From Escherichia phage vB_EcoM_WFC: a stretch of DNA of 64,000 nt. This document shows positions 28,778 through 63,068 of this stretch, piece by piece. Where the stretch lies: sequence record NC_048195.1. One strand, written 5' to 3'. Each line of letters starts with the position of its first letter. Within the stretch, counting starts at the first letter, position 1. The notes beneath the pieces are model-generated. The model was given only the letters and a program-made list of their open reading frames with translations, had not been told where the DNA came from and did no database searches. The position numbers and the translations under genes are program-made.

Positions 28778-29422
28778 ATGATTAATGCAAACGTAATATC
28801 TAAAGGGACCGGATGCAGCATGGATGTTGCTGAAAAATGGGTCGACCCCTTCAAGCAGGCTTGTGAGCACTACGGAATCAAAAGCAAGAATGCCATCGCG
28901 GCGCTGCTTGCAAACGTAGGAGTGGAAACAGGCAGCCTGAAGACCTTTGTGGAAAACCTGAATTATTCCGCTCAAGGTCTTGCTAATACGTGGCCTAGCC
29001 GTTACAGCGCCAGCGGTCGTTTCGGTGGCGCACCAAACTCCTTGGCATTGTCGATTGCCCGTAAACCAATGGAAATCGCCAATAATACATATGCAAACCG
29101 AATGGGAAATGGTTCGGTAGCATCTGGCGACGGTTGGAAGTACCGTGGCCGTGGTGCCATTCAGCTGACTGGAAAGGCTAACTATGCAGAGTATTCAAAG
29201 CAATCAGGGTATGACGCATTGAATAACCCTGACATTTTGACTGAGCCGAAATACATCGCTGACAGCGCGGCGTGGTTCTTCAAGAACAGCGGTTGCATTC
29301 CACTTGCCGATGCGGGTGCATTTGATTCGACCGTGAAGCGGATTAACGGGGCCGCGCCGAATACGGCTAACCATGGGGATTTGCGACGGAAGCGTTACAA
29401 GGATGTACTAGCAGTCATGTAA
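28778..29422 (+). CDS. endolysin, glycoside hydrolase family 19 (chitinase-like)
   Basis: 214 aa; AAGGTGA RBS; GDGWKYRGRGAIQLTGKANY block typical of GH19 lysozymes; no signal peptide or TM segment. Confidence 0.8.
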   Translation: MINANVISKGTGCSMDVAEKWVDPFKQACEHYGIKSKNAIAALLANVGVETGSLKTFVENLNYSAQGLANTWPSRYSASGRFGGAPNSLALSIARKPMEIANNTYANRMGNGSVASGDGWKYRGRGAIQLTGKANYAEYSKQSGYDALNNPDILTEPKYIADSAAWFFKNSGCIPLADAGAFDSTVKRINGAAPNTANHGDLRRKRYKDVLAVM

Positions 29423-29423
29423 G

Positions 29424-29454
29424 AAAAAGGCCCATATGGGCCTTTGTTTATTTT
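29424..29454. terminator. bidirectional intrinsic terminator between convergent genes
   Basis: AAAGGCCC ATAT GGGCCTTT hairpin flanked by A-run upstream and T-run downstream. Confidence 0.65.
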
Positions 29455-29678
29455 ACGGCTTCAACCTGGACAGGCGGCGCGGAACTTGTATCAATGTCTG
29501 GCAAGTCGAAGTAATACCCCGCCATGCCAATCACGCCAACAATCGCGGCCCGTGCCACCTTGTTGCTAATTGACTCCCCAATAAGCTTTACCAACAGGGA
29601 CAAGATTTGAGACGTCAAAGCCTTTTTCAGCCTTTTGTTTTCTTCCAAATCTTTCTGCATAACTACCACCCATGTCAA
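29448..29678 (-). CDS. small membrane protein (one TM helix), possible holin or antiholin
   Basis: 76 aa with hydrophobic segment VARAAIVGVIGMAGYYF; convergent with the endolysin gene. Confidence 0.4.
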   Translation of the reverse strand: MTWVVVMQKDLEENKRLKKALTSQILSLLVKLIGESISNKVARAAIVGVIGMAGYYFDLPDIDTSSAPPVQVEAVK

Positions 29679-30217
29679 CGCACATCCTGTGTCTTAACAT
29701 TACCTGAAGCATCTCTTAAGGGCAGTGGATAGTAGGCCATTTGGTAGTCTGATACGCCTTCAACATGATAAAACACGATTACGTCTTTGCTGTTGATGAG
29801 CATGTTAACGACATCTGATTTATCTTCTGGAGTGAGTATGAGTGCGCCGCCTGTCCTGCTGTCTACTGCAACAGGGTATGTCTTGTCGACAAGGCCGCTG
29901 TCCAATGTATTATACCTGACAACGATTTCAGCGGCATCAACTTTTGCAATTGACATTCCGAACACAAACGAAACGACTTGGCGACCGCGATCATTCATTA
30001 CGCACATCTTTTCCTTATCAAACCTTTTCTTTATCACATCATATTTGTTCCAGCAAAATTCGAACGATTGGCCGTTGTTAAAATATCTCGTTAACACTTT
30101 GGCATTACTATTTGGCGGCGTAAACATACTTTCAGCCGCTGCACTTTTGGTGAAGAACAAGACTGTCAGCATAGCCATGATGGTGATCAAAACAATCTTT
30201 AAAGTTTTCGATTTCAT
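29675..30217 (-). CDS. secreted protein with N-terminal signal peptide
   Basis: 180 aa; MKSKTLKIVLITIMAMLTVLFFTKSAAA then polar mature part. Confidence 0.45.
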   Translation of the reverse strand: MKSKTLKIVLITIMAMLTVLFFTKSAAAESMFTPPNSNAKVLTRYFNNGQSFEFCWNKYDVIKKRFDKEKMCVMNDRGRQVVSFVFGMSIAKVDAAEIVVRYNTLDSGLVDKTYPVAVDSRTGGALILTPEDKSDVVNMLINSKDVIVFYHVEGVSDYQMAYYPLPLRDASGNVKTQDVR

Positions 30218-30393
30218 TATAATTCACCTTTTGATTACGAATATTAATAGTATAGGCCGAAGGTTTTGAAAGTAAATAAGGCGAAAGGTAAATAAAAGAA
30301 AAGCCGGAGATTTCCGGCTTTATGTATACACTGTATATTAAATTCTATAAAACGACGCGATAGATTATCCGCACCAATTATTTATCTAGTGTC

Positions 30394-31982: not shown

Positions 31983-32498
31983 CTATTTTTCCTTTGATGC
32001 ATTGAATTGATCGATTTTTATTTTAGCCTGATTATAAGTATCAATCAAGCTATTAACTTTCTCTTTTAATCGATTTGTTTCTGCGGCGAACTGAACAAGA
32101 AATCTGACATCCTCTTCTGATAGTCCACAGTTTCCTTCTGGGATAGAGAGGCGTCCAGTGGTCGCAGAGTCGGGCACACTCCTGAGTAACTCACGGGAGC
32201 AGCTGAGTTGCTCGCGCAACTTGACATTCCCAGACTTGTAACGAGCAATAGTGTCATCAGCAACCAGTTGCGCTTCCTGGCGACCCTTCTCATATGCCGA
32301 TGCCGATTCAACCTGTAAAGTTGCAATTTGCTCTTCGAGTGCATTTATCTTGTCCTTACGCTCATTAAGCGATGTCAGATATTGATTATCCTTGGCCAGT
32401 GATGCGTTGGTTTGCTGCAGGTCTTCAACGTATGATCCAGCGGCAAACGCGCCAACAAGGGCCAGAATCTTCAGGAGCGGTACAATTCTTTCTATCAT
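31983..32498 (-). CDS. i-spanin (Rz-like)
   Basis: 171 aa; N-terminal TM segment (IVPLLKILALVGAFAAGSYV), long coiled-coil periplasmic part, and an embedded lipoprotein ORF in another frame. Confidence 0.5.
   Translation of the reverse strand: MIERIVPLLKILALVGAFAAGSYVEDLQQTNASLAKDNQYLTSLNERKDKINALEEQIATLQVESASAYEKGRQEAQLVADDTIARYKSGNVKLREQLSCSRELLRSVPDSATTGRLSIPEGNCGLSEEDVRFLVQFAAETNRLKEKVNSLIDTYNQAKIKIDQFNASKEK
32066..32293 (-). CDS. o-spanin (Rz1-like) embedded in the i-spanin gene
   Basis: Out-of-frame ORF wholly inside 31983-32498; MRRVARKRNWLLMTLLLVTSLGMSSC lipoprotein-like signal with Cys, followed by a short Pro-containing mature peptide. Confidence 0.45.
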   Translation of the reverse strand: MRRVARKRNWLLMTLLLVTSLGMSSCASNSAAPVSYSGVCPTLRPLDASLSQKETVDYQKRMSDFLFSSPQKQID

Positions 32499-42877: not shown

Positions 42878-43324
42878 TTAACGGTAGTTAACTAGTTGCT
42901 GATCACCAGAGAAGGTGCAATGATAAACGAATTGTGCGTTATAAAGCAACTGAAAACTTTTCTTTGGTTCATTATTAGAACTCATTGATGTAAAGATTTC
43001 TGCACCAGAACGGTTTTCACCAATAAGGTTGATAAAGCCGCCAGTTGAACGAGGTTGGACGAAAGTGAAACGTTGCATCCACGGAGTGCGGTTGGCACCT
43101 TTCCCTGTGAATCCCTGAATCTGAATATTCAGACCTTCTTGCTCGTTCACACCGATGTAAGTGGTAATTGTTGCGCCAGTCGTCGCTGCAGTCTTGCCGT
43201 CCATCGCTTCGCAATCGTAAACAGCGATTGAATCGGAAGTACGGACAGCGGCTTCAGTCGCTTCCATATACATGGTTCCGAGAATAGCAGTTGCGGCAAG
43301 CGCGATTCCAGTGATGCGTTTCAT
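42878..43324 (-). CDS. secreted protein with N-terminal signal peptide
   Basis: 148 aa; MKRITGIALAATAILGTMYMEA then polar mature part. Confidence 0.45.
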   Translation of the reverse strand: MKRITGIALAATAILGTMYMEATEAAVRTSDSIAVYDCEAMDGKTAATTGATITTYIGVNEQEGLNIQIQGFTGKGANRTPWMQRFTFVQPRSTGGFINLIGENRSGAEIFTSMSSNNEPKKSFQLLYNAQFVYHCTFSGDQQLVNYR

Positions 43325-43389
43325 TTTCGTTTCCTCTATGAGTTCTGCTTCAATGATTAAAGTATACGCCCATTGAAGCAGAAAGCAAA

Positions 43390-44519: not shown

Positions 44520-45365
44520 TTATTCCGCTTGATCACCGTCTTCAGCATCGTCGTTGGATTCAACATCGACAAACTCGATGTGGCCCATCTCTTCCAGCTT
44601 GCTCAGGTAGGAGCGAACGGAAGCGCCAAACAGTTGATCTTTAACTTTTTCGCCCAGCTCATCGATAGACTGTGCCACACCAACTTCGCCTTCTTTGATC
44701 GCCGCCAGAACGCGTCCACGGGTGGAATGCTCTTGCGGCTGGCTCAGGCCATTGCCAGTGTAGATGAAGTGAGTGGCTTTTGCACGACGCTGACCGTTTG
44801 CCTTTTTAGCAGCCTTACGTTCTGCGATGGCTTTGCGACGTTCTTCAGCTTCTTTCTTACGCTGTTCTTTCTGCTGTTCTGCAGCTTCTTTCGCCGCAAT
44901 CTTAGCAGCTTCACGCTCTGCCTTGCGTTTCGCTTTAGCTTCTTCTTTGGCCTTCTCTTTTTCGGCCTTCGCTGCAGCACGGGCTTGATCACGCTCTGCT
45001 TTCTTGGCCGCAGCCTGCTCAGCTTTCAGGCGCTTGGCTTCTTCTTTAGCCTTTGCCTTTTCGATTTCTTTTGCTGCTTTAGCGGCTTCACGCTCTGCTT
45101 TCTTAGCAGCAGCCTTTTCTGCACGCTCTTTAGCTTTCTTAGCTGCTTCTTCAGCACGCTTCTGAGCCTTCTCATCAGCAGCCTGCTTGCGTTTCAGCGC
45201 AGCTTCTTCACGCTTGGCTTGTTTTTCCTGCTCACGCTTCTGGCGTTTTTCTTCGGCTTCTTTCTTTTTAGCCAGGCGTTTTTCTTCAGCCACGCGACGA
45301 CGTTCTGCTGCGGCTGCTTGTTTTTCTTCTTTAGATAATACTTTGATTGCTTCGGCCATATTCAC
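44520..45365 (-). CDS. highly charged Lys/Glu/Ala-rich protein (predicted long single alpha-helix) with small C-terminal domain
   Basis: 281 aa; about 200 residues of KAEKEAAKKA-type low complexity, then an ~80 aa globular tail and acidic end. Confidence 0.55.
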   Translation of the reverse strand: MNMAEAIKVLSKEEKQAAAAERRRVAEEKRLAKKKEAEEKRQKREQEKQAKREEAALKRKQAADEKAQKRAEEAAKKAKERAEKAAAKKAEREAAKAAKEIEKAKAKEEAKRLKAEQAAAKKAERDQARAAAKAEKEKAKEEAKAKRKAEREAAKIAAKEAAEQQKEQRKKEAEERRKAIAERKAAKKANGQRRAKATHFIYTGNGLSQPQEHSTRGRVLAAIKEGEVGVAQSIDELGEKVKDQLFGASVRSYLSKLEEMGHIEFVDVESNDDAEDGDQAE

Positions 45366-47132: not shown

Positions 47133-47160
47133 TTGACTTTGTATCACTCAATATTATACT
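47133..47160 (+). promoter_or_regulatory. sigma70-like promoter for the + strand early/replication operon
   Basis: TTGACT (47133-47138), 16-nt spacer, TATACT (47155-47160), in the divergent intergenic region 47030-47189. Confidence 0.5.
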
Positions 47161-61052: not shown

Positions 61053-61448
61053 AATTTGCACTATAAAACGGCCCTAGAACACATTTTCTCCACTTCTAGG
61101 GCCATCGGTAATACGACGGGGAAGGTTGCAACCATAAACGCGTTAGAAAGTGTATTATTATAAGTCATCTTTTAGTCACTTTACGTAACAATTTACGACC
61201 TTCAACCGTCCAATCGAACGACTCCACCAGCAGATTCGCACTATAACCTAAGACGATGCGCCCTTTCTCGTTATCGACCCGCCAACAAGTCTCGAATAGC
61301 ATTCGATTTGCACTATTAACTATTGCCGCAACTCGCGTAGGATAAGCGCAATTTGCACTATGGTCGTAAAGGGATAAGGTGCGACCACTTCCGATGGACA
61401 ACGTAGCGATGAGAATAAGCGTATTCATAAGCCACCAATTTGCACTAT
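61053..61448 (+). repeat. array of same-orientation (A)ATTTGCACTAT motifs
   Basis: Copies at 61053-61064, 61233-61244 (TTCGCACTAT variant), 61305-61316, 61350-61361, 61437-61448; further copies at 60552-60563, 60569-60578, 61734-61745, 61748-61759, 62021-62032. Confidence 0.6.
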
Positions 61449-62568: not shown

Positions 62569-62596
62569 ATTATAATATAGTGTAGAAAAAAGTAAA
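62569..62596 (-). promoter_or_regulatory. sigma70-like promoter (family copy 1, minus strand)
   Basis: On the minus strand: AAAAAGTGC TTTACT, 16-nt spacer containing TACACT, TATAAT. Confidence 0.5.
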
Positions 62597-62640: not shown

Positions 62641-62668
62641 TTTACTTCTTCGTACACTCGCGTATACT
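62641..62668 (+). promoter_or_regulatory. sigma70-like promoter (family copy 2)
   Basis: TTTACT (62641-62646), 16-nt spacer TCTTCGTACACTCGCG, TATACT (62663-62668). Confidence 0.5.
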
Positions 62669-62724
62669 TGTTTATATCGAGACGGGCGATGGCCCTTTCT
62701 TCTACTAGCATCGGGAGCTTTATT

Positions 62725-63027
62725 ATGACTACTTTAATCTCTTCCATCCTTACTTACGACGAAGACCGCTTAACCGTTCGCTCTCTTATCGCCGCCGTTA
62801 ACGCGGAACTAGAATCTAGCGCCATTAAGGTCCGCGCGGTCGCCTTCATCGGCCTTTCCTTCGACGATATGAAGTATGCCGAACGTAGCGCCATCCGCTT
62901 CGCGAAGACCGACGACGAAGCCGTTACCCTTATCGAGACGGTTACGCCGCGCGGCGAAGCGTTAATTATCGTCGAGTATATCGACGTAGAAGGCGATAAA
63001 TCTTATAAACATTTTATCGCAGAATAA
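62725..63027 (+). CDS. hypothetical protein (100 aa)
   Basis: ATG 62725 preceded by GGGAG; the ORF-track TTG start at 62668 lies inside the promoter; CpG-rich. Confidence 0.45.
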   Translation: MTTLISSILTYDEDRLTVRSLIAAVNAELESSAIKVRAVAFIGLSFDDMKYAERSAIRFAKTDDEAVTLIETVTPRGEALIIVEYIDVEGDKSYKHFIAE

Positions 63028-63039
63028 CGAAAAAAGTGC

Positions 63040-63068
63040 TTTACTTCTTCGTACACTAAGACTATAAT
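63040..63068 (+). promoter_or_regulatory. sigma70-like promoter (family copy 3)
   Basis: AAAAAGTGC TTTACT (63040-63045), 17-nt spacer TCTTCGTACACTAAGAC, TATAAT (63063-63068). Confidence 0.5.

Follow-up and report, generated by a model that had tools for sequence, protein, structure and literature searches.

The 64,000-nucleotide stretch of the genome of Escherichia phage vB_EcoM_WFC (NC_048195.1) analysed here, in the following referred to as the window, contains two conserved accessory genes, ORF1 (29675..30217; minus strand) and ORF2 (42878..43324; minus strand), whose small orphan products would be sent to the cell envelope by Sec-type signals. ORF1 directly precedes the gene for LRP, a holin-like and membrane-associated protein, and the ORF1 protein might modulate LRP-dependent lysis from the periplasm. 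Taken as a whole, this explanation of the two genes, an envelope-targeted orphan pair with ORF1 as a periplasmic modulator of LRP-dependent lysis, is put forward tentatively, and we rate its chances at somewhat below even.

Two conserved genes of Wifcevirus phages

The 3-kb stretch around ORF1 is 96–98% identical to the Escherichia phages ManiWeber (Bas99), vB_Eco4M-7, FEC19 and other members of the genus Wifcevirus, virulent myoviruses of ~68 kb that are distant kin of the Pseudomonas phages of the genus Pbunavirus (PMC11990801). The 180-amino acid (aa) precursor of ORF1 corresponds to vBEco4M7_66, Bas99_0034 and CPT_Mansfield_054, and the 148-aa product of ORF2 to vBEco4M7_81; the deposited annotations of the relatives read 'hypothetical protein' throughout. 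Both open reading frames (ORFs), for which a preliminary description of this DNA had given positions without the strand, exist on the minus strand and have ATG start codons behind good Shine-Dalgarno sequences (AAAGGTGA for ORF1, GAGGA for ORF2). Each was recovered in 27 of the 27 Wifcevirus records; ORF1 is additionally present in Kylevirus (the Pantoea phages Kyle and PA1) at 33–39% identity, and ORF2 was found nowhere else. When compared with genomes of ~91–95% identity, the ratio of non-synonymous to synonymous substitution rates (dN/dS) is 0.13 for ORF1 and 0.08–0.09 for ORF2, and these low values point to strong purifying selection and mark both genes as coding for expressed, constrained proteins.

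The leader of ORF1

The preliminary description had pointed out a basic n-region, a hydrophobic core and an Ala-rich cleavage region in both N-termini and had concluded that both proteins might be secreted or periplasmic. All three elements are found in both, although the cleavage of ORF2 is uncertain. The claim of export is well supported for ORF1 by its tripartite leader, the A-x-A motif, the fast evolution of the leader and two Cys residues; for ORF2, an export-type N-terminus, two Cys residues and the secreted proteins encoded at the corresponding position in Kylevirus lend it moderate support, the cleavage site being weak.

The predicted ORF1 signal peptide (30134..30217; minus strand; codons 1–28, MKSKTLKIVLITIMAMLTVLFFTKSAAA) starts with MKSKTLK, an n-region with three Lys residues (K2, K4, K7; net +3) and no acidic residue ahead of the core, continues with the hydrophobic core IVLITIMAMLTVLFF (I8–F22/T23; 15–16 residues), whose 10-residue maximum reaches 3.0 on the Kyte-Doolittle scale, and ends in TKSAAA|ESMF, with Ala at −3 and −1 and the predicted cleavage after A-A-A; the adjoining site SAA|A received a slightly higher matrix score. 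Residues 1–25 of ten ORF1 homologs (33–91% identity) are not alignable, yet they are always basic and then hydrophobic; this character and an A-x-A site are preserved in six lineages, down to 33–40% identity. The net positive n-region is retained across the homologs, and the core is Ala/Thr-rich in Kylevirus, as is typical for leaders, and Ile/Leu/Phe-rich elsewhere. At the aligned position, the homologs carry the small-x-small sites AAA|E, ASA|E, ARA|A, AKA|D, AVA|Q, TFA|A and AFS|A. An A-x-A-type site stands just ahead of the conserved MF-x-PPN, the first conserved motif of mature ORF1 a few residues past the cleavage site, in the window, in the homologs P0001–P0004, P0008 and P0010, and in Kyle and PA1. 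Within Wifcevirus, dN amounts to 0.133 for the leader vs 0.025 for the mature part, a ~5-fold faster evolution, as is usually seen in leaders that are cleaved off.

Cleavage sites were scored with a rough matrix, approximate in its scores, that was derived from 40 classical E. coli leaders; leave-one-out runs recovered 36 of the 40 sites, and the positives had a mean of 12.8 (standard deviation 4.9). ORF1 scored 8.3 and ranked first among 94 window ORFs, the others having a mean of −6.5 (standard deviation 4.9; maximum 7.1), and its homologs scored 5.8–15.9 at the aligned site. A hydrophobicity scan of the ~94 gene-like ORFs of the window flagged only ORF1, the i-spanin Rz, a small ORF at 61165–61428 and an uncharged ORF at 2572–2988, with ORF2 slightly below the threshold. 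The leader of ORF1 is clearly more than a product of chance, and it is evolutionarily conserved. Neither ORF1 nor ORF2 contains a lipobox (L-[AS]-[GA]-C), their first Cys residues being residues 55 and 38, respectively, and no RR of a twin-arginine (Tat) motif is present in either N-terminus; with these motifs missing, ORF1 can be ruled out as a lipoprotein or a Tat substrate. The ORF1 protein is thus very probably exported and cleaved in the manner of Sec/signal peptidase I substrates, a prediction made from its sequence.

The mature ORF1 protein and its family

The predicted mature domain of ORF1 (29678..30133; minus strand) comprises 152 aa (17.2 kDa; pI 6.9) and possesses two invariant Cys residues, C55 and C72 of the precursor, which are 17 residues apart and fit an oxidising compartment. 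Scans of Pfam, PHROGs, NCBIfam and PADLOC gave no match for ORF1, ORF2 or the ORF1 family, and a comparison of ORF1 with ORF2 revealed no similarity. Sequence and profile searches of the PDB were empty; the profile of ten ORF1 homologs hit nothing below E=0.5 among all PDB chains, a set that includes the structures of T4 RI and of the RI-T complex, and a Foldseek search of an ORF1 model against the PDB returned noise (TM ~0.2 on the template-modelling score; nothing at E≤0.001). By these searches, no relationship of ORF1 to T4 RI, holin T or Spackle is detectable.

A word-indexed search of 5.8 billion proteins yielded five clusters for ORF1 and one for ORF2, and an exhaustive hidden Markov model (HMM) search of 1.84 billion representatives yielded six ORF1 matches. 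One of these six, a 1250-aa Ig-repeat protein with seven weak repeat matches, is regarded as spurious. IMG/VR scans with a single protein or a broad alignment found only three Wifcevirus contigs. On a 32.7-kb metagenomic Wifcevirus-like contig, ORF1 (protein P0005) is frameshifted; its sequence is identical as far as residue ~122 and leaves the frame thereafter. Either a sequencing error accounts for this or the phage is a natural knockout, in which case ORF1 would be shown to be dispensable.

A bicistronic unit of ORF1 and LRP

Downstream of the DNA ligase gene, the minus strand carries, in this order, a terminator, a promoter, a Shine-Dalgarno sequence, ORF1, 14 nt of spacer, LRP and a second terminator. 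The first of these terminators (30300..30321; minus strand) is strong, intrinsic and conserved, is annotated in phage Mansfield, and insulates the ORF1 unit from the upstream operon; the second is a bidirectional hairpin (29426..29445; both strands) that serves both the ORF1-LRP unit and the convergent endolysin gene and is annotated on both strands in Mansfield. As read from these signals, ORF1 and LRP form a self-contained bicistronic unit in which ORF1 is promoter-proximal. The spacing between the two genes is 0–21 nt in six lineages, and they overlap in the syntenic relative L108.

The promoter upstream of ORF1 is of the sigma-70 type (TTTACT-16-TATACT; 30249..30276; minus strand). Upstream of ORF1, a 176-bp region shows 95% identity among Wifcevirus genomes, compared with 91.5% for the ORF1 coding sequence, and the promoter hexamers are invariant. 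The spacers are fully diverged in the syntenic relatives L108, L109 and L110, in which the terminator, TTTACT, the 16-nt spacing, TATA(C/A)T and the Shine-Dalgarno sequence are kept; in Kyle, both hexamers are present at a spacing of 21 nt. The motif TTTACT-N15-22-TATAMT occurs four times in the window vs 0.08 copies expected, a number that none of 100 shuffled sequences reached, and the three other copies are located in a divergent promoter region at 62.5–63.1 kb among small early-looking genes, which is probably an early promoter region. The ORF1 promoter looks functional, and we infer from its type that the ORF1-LRP unit may be transcribed by the unmodified host polymerase, either early or constitutively.

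LRP and the lysis genes next to ORF1

The suggestion in the preliminary description that the first of the two ORFs lies next to the lysis genes proved correct, as it adjoins a convergent endolysin gene, has a holin-like gene 14 nt downstream and an Rz/Rz1 pair two genes upstream. LRP (29448..29660; minus strand; 70 aa; phrog_5165, E=2e-8) is an ortholog of PA1-LRP (48% identity; tblastn E=3e-14) and evolves under strong constraint (dN/dS ~0–0.04). It consists of a very basic N-terminus, an amphipathic helix, a Gly/Ala-rich hydrophobic stretch of ~14 residues and an acidic, proline-rich tail, which is expected to be periplasmic because of the positive-inside rule. Tian et al. 2024 (PMC11538084) could identify no holin in phage PA1; they found that PA1-LRP alone inhibits growth and that its combination with the PA1 endolysin markedly enhances killing. 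The protein was tested mostly as endolysin fusions, and the ORF1 homolog is unmentioned in that study.

The endolysin gene (28778..29422; plus strand; PF00182, phrog_181) codes for a GH19 enzyme that possesses neither a signal nor a signal-anchor-release (SAR) sequence, its N-terminus not being hydrophobic. In syntenic relatives, the endolysin that is convergent with LRP comes from three unrelated families (GH19, GH108 with PG_binding_3, and phrog_90 lysozyme); the loci that correspond to window positions 28778–29422 are L108:4803-5255, L109:4861-5505 and L110:4849-5400. L110 has the GH108 enzyme and L108 the phrog_90 lysozyme, and LRP and ORF1 stay in place in both. That LRP is kept despite the exchange of the endolysin is the behaviour expected of a holin-type partner indifferent to the enzyme. 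The possibility that ORF1 is a specific inhibitor of the GH19 endolysin was considered and can be ruled out, since the ORF1-LRP unit persists beside the GH108 and phrog_90 lysozymes. LRP is also found, at ~38% identity, in about 290 Pbunavirus genomes, always convergent on the endolysin, and is a core gene of the Wifcevirus/Kylevirus/Pbunavirus clade. Since the endolysin proved too promiscuous an anchor for the collection of loci, its loci were mined with HMMs instead; these place LRP beside the endolysin in JG024, E217, L027–L029 and L108–L110.

Apart from LRP, no candidate for a holin was found in the window. A canonical holin, meaning a small protein with two to three transmembrane domains (TMDs) or a match to a holin family of PHROGs or Pfam, was not found there either; the small candidate ORFs had no match to a holin PHROG, and the Wifcevirus annotations that were consulted assign no holin. 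Two genes upstream of ORF1 lies the gene for an Rz-like i-spanin (31983..32498; minus strand; phrog_1327; annotated in Bas99 and Mansfield), in which that of the o-spanin Rz1, with a Cys in its leader, is embedded (32066-32344).

ORF1 as an accessory gene

In Pbunavirus, the ligase gene is followed by a 279-bp gap devoid of any credible ORF and then by LRP; ORF1 is absent there and likewise from the relatives L028 and L029. In every lineage that has ORF1 (Wifcevirus, L108, L109, L110, Kyle and PA1), it stands directly upstream of LRP. These distributions indicate that ORF1 is old, coupled to LRP, independent of the type of endolysin, and dispensable for the basic LRP-endolysin arrangement.

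In mass spectrometry (MS) of preparations of vB_Eco4M-7 and ECML-117, 33 and 28 proteins, respectively, were detected, the endolysin and other non-structural proteins included; gp66 (ORF1), gp81 (ORF2) and gp65 (LRP) are absent from the lists of those two preparations, which would fit proteins that are not part of the virion but is negative evidence only. The paper that contains these data reports ~10 min per complete cycle for Wifcevirus. A role of ORF1 as a virion protein was rejected on the basis of its export signal and its absence from the MS lists.

ORF2 and its variable slot

The N-terminal export signal of ORF2 (43250..43324; minus strand; codons 1–25, MKRITGIALAATAILGTMYMEATEA) begins with MKR (K2, R3; net +2) and has no acidic residue ahead of its core, ITGIALAATAILGTMYM (I4–M20; 17 residues), which is rich in Gly, Ala and Thr and has a mean Kyte-Doolittle value of ~1.6 with a 10-residue maximum of 2.27. 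The cores of both ORF1 and ORF2 fall within the range of about 7–17 residues of Sec leaders, below the length of a membrane-spanning helix. The stretch that follows, EATEA|AVR, places E21 and E24 in the c-region. The best site found anywhere in ORF2 scored 1.1 in the cleavage matrix; the uncleaved SAR domain of T4 RI scored 2.7. Among Wifcevirus genomes, the first 25 codons have undergone synonymous changes only, which marks them as translated and under constraint. After a cut at A25, the mature protein would comprise ~123 aa, with Cys residues at positions 13 and 111. We lean towards the prediction that ORF2 is exported; its signal may be uncleaved or of the SAR type.

ORF2 is located between a phrog_4828 oxidoreductase-like gene and thyX, among genes for nucleotide metabolism. 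When 12 relatives were anchored on the oxidoreductase gene, this slot was found empty in L016, L020 and L022 and occupied by non-secreted ORFs in L013 and L018; in Kylevirus, it holds genes for signal-bearing proteins, two in Kyle (KYLE_76 and KYLE_77; L005:8119-8535 (-) and L005:8600-9046 (-)) and one in PA1 (the ortholog of KYLE_76; L026:6934-7350 (-)). The slot of L015 (L015:4475-4945 (+)) probably also carries a signal-bearing protein, which is free of Cys. The annotated start of KYLE_77 lies 23 codons upstream of the likely true start at MKRF.

BLASTP and hhalign comparisons of ORF2 with the Kylevirus slot proteins were negative, and no homology is claimed. The mature parts of ORF2, KYLE_76, the PA1 ortholog of KYLE_76, and KYLE_77 contain exactly two Cys residues apiece, one 11–13 residues from the mature N-terminus and the other 8–12 residues from the C-terminus. 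Given two randomly placed Cys residues, the chance of such a placement is ~0.005–0.007 per protein, calculated for windows that were chosen post hoc. The pattern suggests that these proteins might share a disulfide-stapled fold that has diverged past recognition, or that they have converged.

The 65-nt spacer between the oxidoreductase stop codon and ORF2 is 100% identical in four Wifcevirus genomes, and ORF2 itself differs by 4–7%. The spacer contains a hairpin (43345..43381; minus strand) with perfect arms of 11 bp (14 bp as folded; −18.9 kcal/mol, z=−5.2) and no U-tract, which brackets the TATACT hexamer of a TTTGCT-17-TATACT sequence at 43361-43389. This hairpin might serve as an operator, as a site of RNA processing or as a terminator of an atypical kind.

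Proposed function and alternatives

The predicted destination of the ORF1 and ORF2 proteins can be stated with more confidence than their activity there. In the sequence of events that we propose, host sigma-70 RNA polymerase would probably transcribe the ORF1-LRP unit without phage factors, signal peptidase I would remove the leader of 27–28 residues from ORF1 after A-x-A, and a mature protein of ~17 kDa, mainly beta and probably disulfide-bonded, would be released into the periplasm. There, it would serve as a non-essential modulator of LRP-dependent lysis, an analogue and not a homologue of T4 RI, which might act on the acidic, proline-rich and periplasm-facing C-terminal tail of LRP. ORF2 would be a second exported protein, secreted or tethered by its uncleaved signal and encoded in a slot of fast turnover, that more likely serves in phage competition or in an interaction with the host envelope. 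The lysis model for ORF1 is derived from operon coupling, synteny and the PA1 data, and the genomic context favours a link to lysis more strongly than the preliminary description, which had considered lysis regulation next to superinfection exclusion and receptor masking, could have known. We regard it as possible, yet doubtful, that the secreted ORF1 protein modulates LRP-dependent lysis from the periplasm as an accessory factor.

Several observations weigh against this proposal. LRP works in Pbunavirus without ORF1. The exposed tail of LRP is short, unlike the globular periplasmic domain of the RI-bound T4 holin T, and LRP, whose hydrophobic stretch measures only ~14 residues, is a holin-like candidate that is not proven to be a holin. 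The phenotypes described for PA1-LRP were obtained with fusions and over-expression and are modest in size (PMC11538084). A holin unit is not usually served by an early sigma-70 promoter, which suits exclusion genes at least equally well. Neither homology nor structural similarity of ORF1 to RI or any other lysis regulator was found in our searches, and the AlphaFold models of ORF1 and ORF2, which rested on shallow alignments, are unusable, with predicted local distance difference test (pLDDT) values of 49 and 46, respectively; all that they indicate is a helix at the N-terminus with predominantly beta structure after it, which suggests that mature ORF1 may be mainly beta. As for export, the cleavage matrix placed the cut of T4 Spackle at the wrong site (score 5.6), which shows its limits, and T-E-A|A of ORF2 fits the small −3/−1 rule formally, but A25|A26 scores −4.5 in this rough matrix. 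The GenBank record of vB_Eco4M-7 carries the remark 'signal peptide domain found' solely for the i-spanin and not for gp66 or gp81, which is mild counter-evidence or merely incomplete annotation.

It is equally conceivable for ORF1, given that the Pbunavirus LRP-endolysin arrangement does without it, that it acts in exclusion; ORF1, ORF2 or both would then be superinfection-exclusion or immunity proteins akin to T4 Spackle or P1 Sim; made early, the ORF1 and ORF2 proteins would wait in the periplasm and block genome delivery by secondary phages. The sigma-70-type promoter of ORF1, which belongs to the same class as the presumptive early-region promoters, the accessory and lineage-restricted occurrence of both genes (ORF1 being absent from Pbunavirus and ORF2 confined to the genus), the rapid turnover of secreted proteins in the ORF2 slot, as would be expected of arms-race genes, and the resemblance of small secreted proteins with a disulfide to Spackle all speak for such a role. 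It fails to explain the tight coupling of ORF1 to LRP in six lineages, and within the genus both proteins show high conservation (dN/dS ~0.1) with no signal of diversifying selection; they resemble neither Spackle nor Sim nor any family of PADLOC, Pfam or PHROGs. We consider this possibility doubtful as well. The alternative that the proteins modify or mask the host envelope, through O-antigen or lipopolysaccharide (LPS) assembly or envelope stress sensing, and thereby stop progeny from adsorbing to infected cells and debris or keep the envelope permissive, draws on the predicted periplasmic location, on the restriction of ORF1 to the branch infecting Enterobacterales with its absence from the Pseudomonas branch, and on the O-antigen being the receptor on which Wifcevirus phages depend (PMC11990801). 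This argument is purely circumstantial; no enzymatic motif and no similarity to glycan-modifying or envelope proteins were found, the ORF1-LRP coupling is again left unexplained, and we judge this role improbable.

The N-termini themselves might be read in other ways. If they were uncleaved, tethering the proteins to the inner membrane as type II signal anchors or releasing them slowly as SAR-type sequences, ORF1 could be a holin similar to T4 T or a membrane-bound partner of LRP whose periplasmic domain is large, and ORF2 a SAR protein similar to RI. Since its sole hydrophobic segment is the leader that is predicted to be removed, an uncleaved ORF1 would resemble a class III holin in its topology. 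The missing canonical holin in the window, the very hydrophobic ORF1 core, the Gly, Ala and Thr content of the ORF2 core, and a best ORF2 score that is near that of the RI SAR domain and far under those of classical leaders are consistent with this view. The ORF1 core, however, has merely 15–16 residues with Lys on either side, the cytoplasmic N-terminus would measure 7 residues vs ~34 in T4 T, and A-x-A is kept in every ORF1 homolog while the composition of the core shifts, a pattern typical of cleaved leaders and not of a functional transmembrane helix; uncleaved N-termini are hardly probable for the pair. That the hydrophobic N-termini are incidental and the proteins cytoplasmic would agree with the poor cleavage region of ORF2, with GenBank annotators having recorded no signal peptide for either protein, and with neither having been detected experimentally in any compartment. 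It is very improbable in view of a leader architecture that is kept across ORF1 homologs of 33–99% identity despite sequence divergence, of the conserved pair of Cys residues, and of the rarity of such N-termini, which occur in four of the ~94 ORFs, the known membrane protein Rz among them.

The lysis proposal can be carried further, to a new two-component lysis-control module combined with a fast-evolving family of periplasmic effectors, although this joint reading is unlikely. If it were true, a small non-canonical holin-like LRP would be governed in the enterobacterial branch by ORF1 as its dedicated secreted partner, an early host-type promoter for both genes could underlie the reported, unusually short latent period of Wifcevirus, and ORF2 and the Kylevirus slot proteins would be 'end-to-end disulfide-stapled' periplasmic phage effectors.

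Comparison with known phage systems

Accessory phage proteins with signal peptides are a known kind and not surprising by themselves; ORF1 and ORF2 are new, uncharacterised members. With T4 RI, ORF1 would share small size, an N-terminal export signal, action in the periplasm and a non-essential, accessory status with a genetic tie to the holin step of lysis. T4 rI is expressed from a promoter usable by the host polymerase, and ORF1 appears to be alike in this respect. The two proteins differ in that there is no sequence or profile similarity, that ORF1 is twice as large (152 aa when mature), that its leader is of the classical cleavable type whereas RI has a SAR domain, that the presumed partner LRP exposes a short tail and no globular periplasmic domain, and that a lysis inhibition phenotype is not known for Wifcevirus. 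T4 Spackle (gp61.3), which is secreted and inhibits the tail lysozyme of incoming phages, and P1 Sim, a processed periplasmic protein that blocks DNA entry, are likewise small, signal-peptide-bearing, Cys-containing periplasmic proteins of early expression and accessory status; unlike them, ORF1 is embedded in a unit with a lysis gene, and there is no similarity between the proteins.

The comparison with Pantoea phage PA1 concerns the neighbour of ORF1, as PA1-LRP is the ortholog of the gene immediately downstream and not of ORF1 itself; in PA1 and Kyle, an ORF1 homolog (ORF14 in PA1; 33–36% identity) also stands directly upstream of LRP. As in morons, ORF1 is present in some relatives and absent from other, syntenic ones, sits at a module boundary, and has its own promoter and terminator, lying between terminators, and the content of the ORF2 slot varies between relatives. 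In contrast to morons, ORF1 shares its cassette with the core gene LRP, is ancient (with homologs of as little as 33% identity) and has become fixed throughout Wifcevirus, whose members are virulent phages and not prophages.

What the analysis adds is an ORF1-LRP unit in a clade without a recognised holin, in phages of which Bas98-101 now grow on engineered E. coli K-12 (PMC11990801); in the host strain for Bas99, the O16 O-antigen has been restored and the cryptic prophages have been removed. The clade, whose lysis timing has yet to be explained, includes the Pbunavirus phages that are widely used in Pseudomonas therapy. Should ORF1 prove to be a periplasmic partner of LRP, the pair would offer a concrete and genetically tractable entry into this lysis system; if either protein excludes other phages, this would matter for the design of phage cocktails. 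Either way, two 'hypothetical proteins' become testable envelope-targeted candidates.

Further observations on the window and its relatives

The Rz/Rz1 pair is situated just upstream of MazG in Wifcevirus, L108 and L109. At its position, Pbunavirus, Kylevirus and L110 have an unrelated 201-aa protein of the PA1-LVP type (phrog_1544; L004:2609-3214, L003:2512-3117, L024:1563-2168, L110:1606-2211) that combines a glycine zipper at its N-terminus with a coiled coil and two TMDs at its C-terminus. The window contains no homolog of this protein; nor does it contain one of the Kylevirus/Pbunavirus 3-TMD protein, which was considered as an alternative holin. The exchange between Rz/Rz1 and PA1-LVP looks like a non-orthologous replacement between envelope-disruption genes.

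Strong promoters of the sigma-70 type with the hexamers of the ORF1 promoter (TTTACT ... TATAMT) are located at 62569-62596 (-), 62641-62668 (+), 63040-63068 (+) and 47133-47160 (+). An ORF at 62668-63027 with a TTG start (leader-matrix score 7.1) begins within one of them, and its listed start is probably wrong because it falls inside the promoter. The 87-aa product of the ORF at 61165-61428 (minus strand) has a hydrophobic N-terminus (MNTLILIATLSIGSG...) with no basic n-region and a cleavage score of −2.5; it gave no family match and is perhaps a small early-region membrane protein. A 281-aa low-complexity protein rich in Lys, Glu and Ala (44520-45365; minus strand), which the annotation of vB_Eco4M-7 names 'TolA protein', is among the proteins that MS found in phage preparations of two Wifcevirus phages, despite the position of its gene among replication genes.

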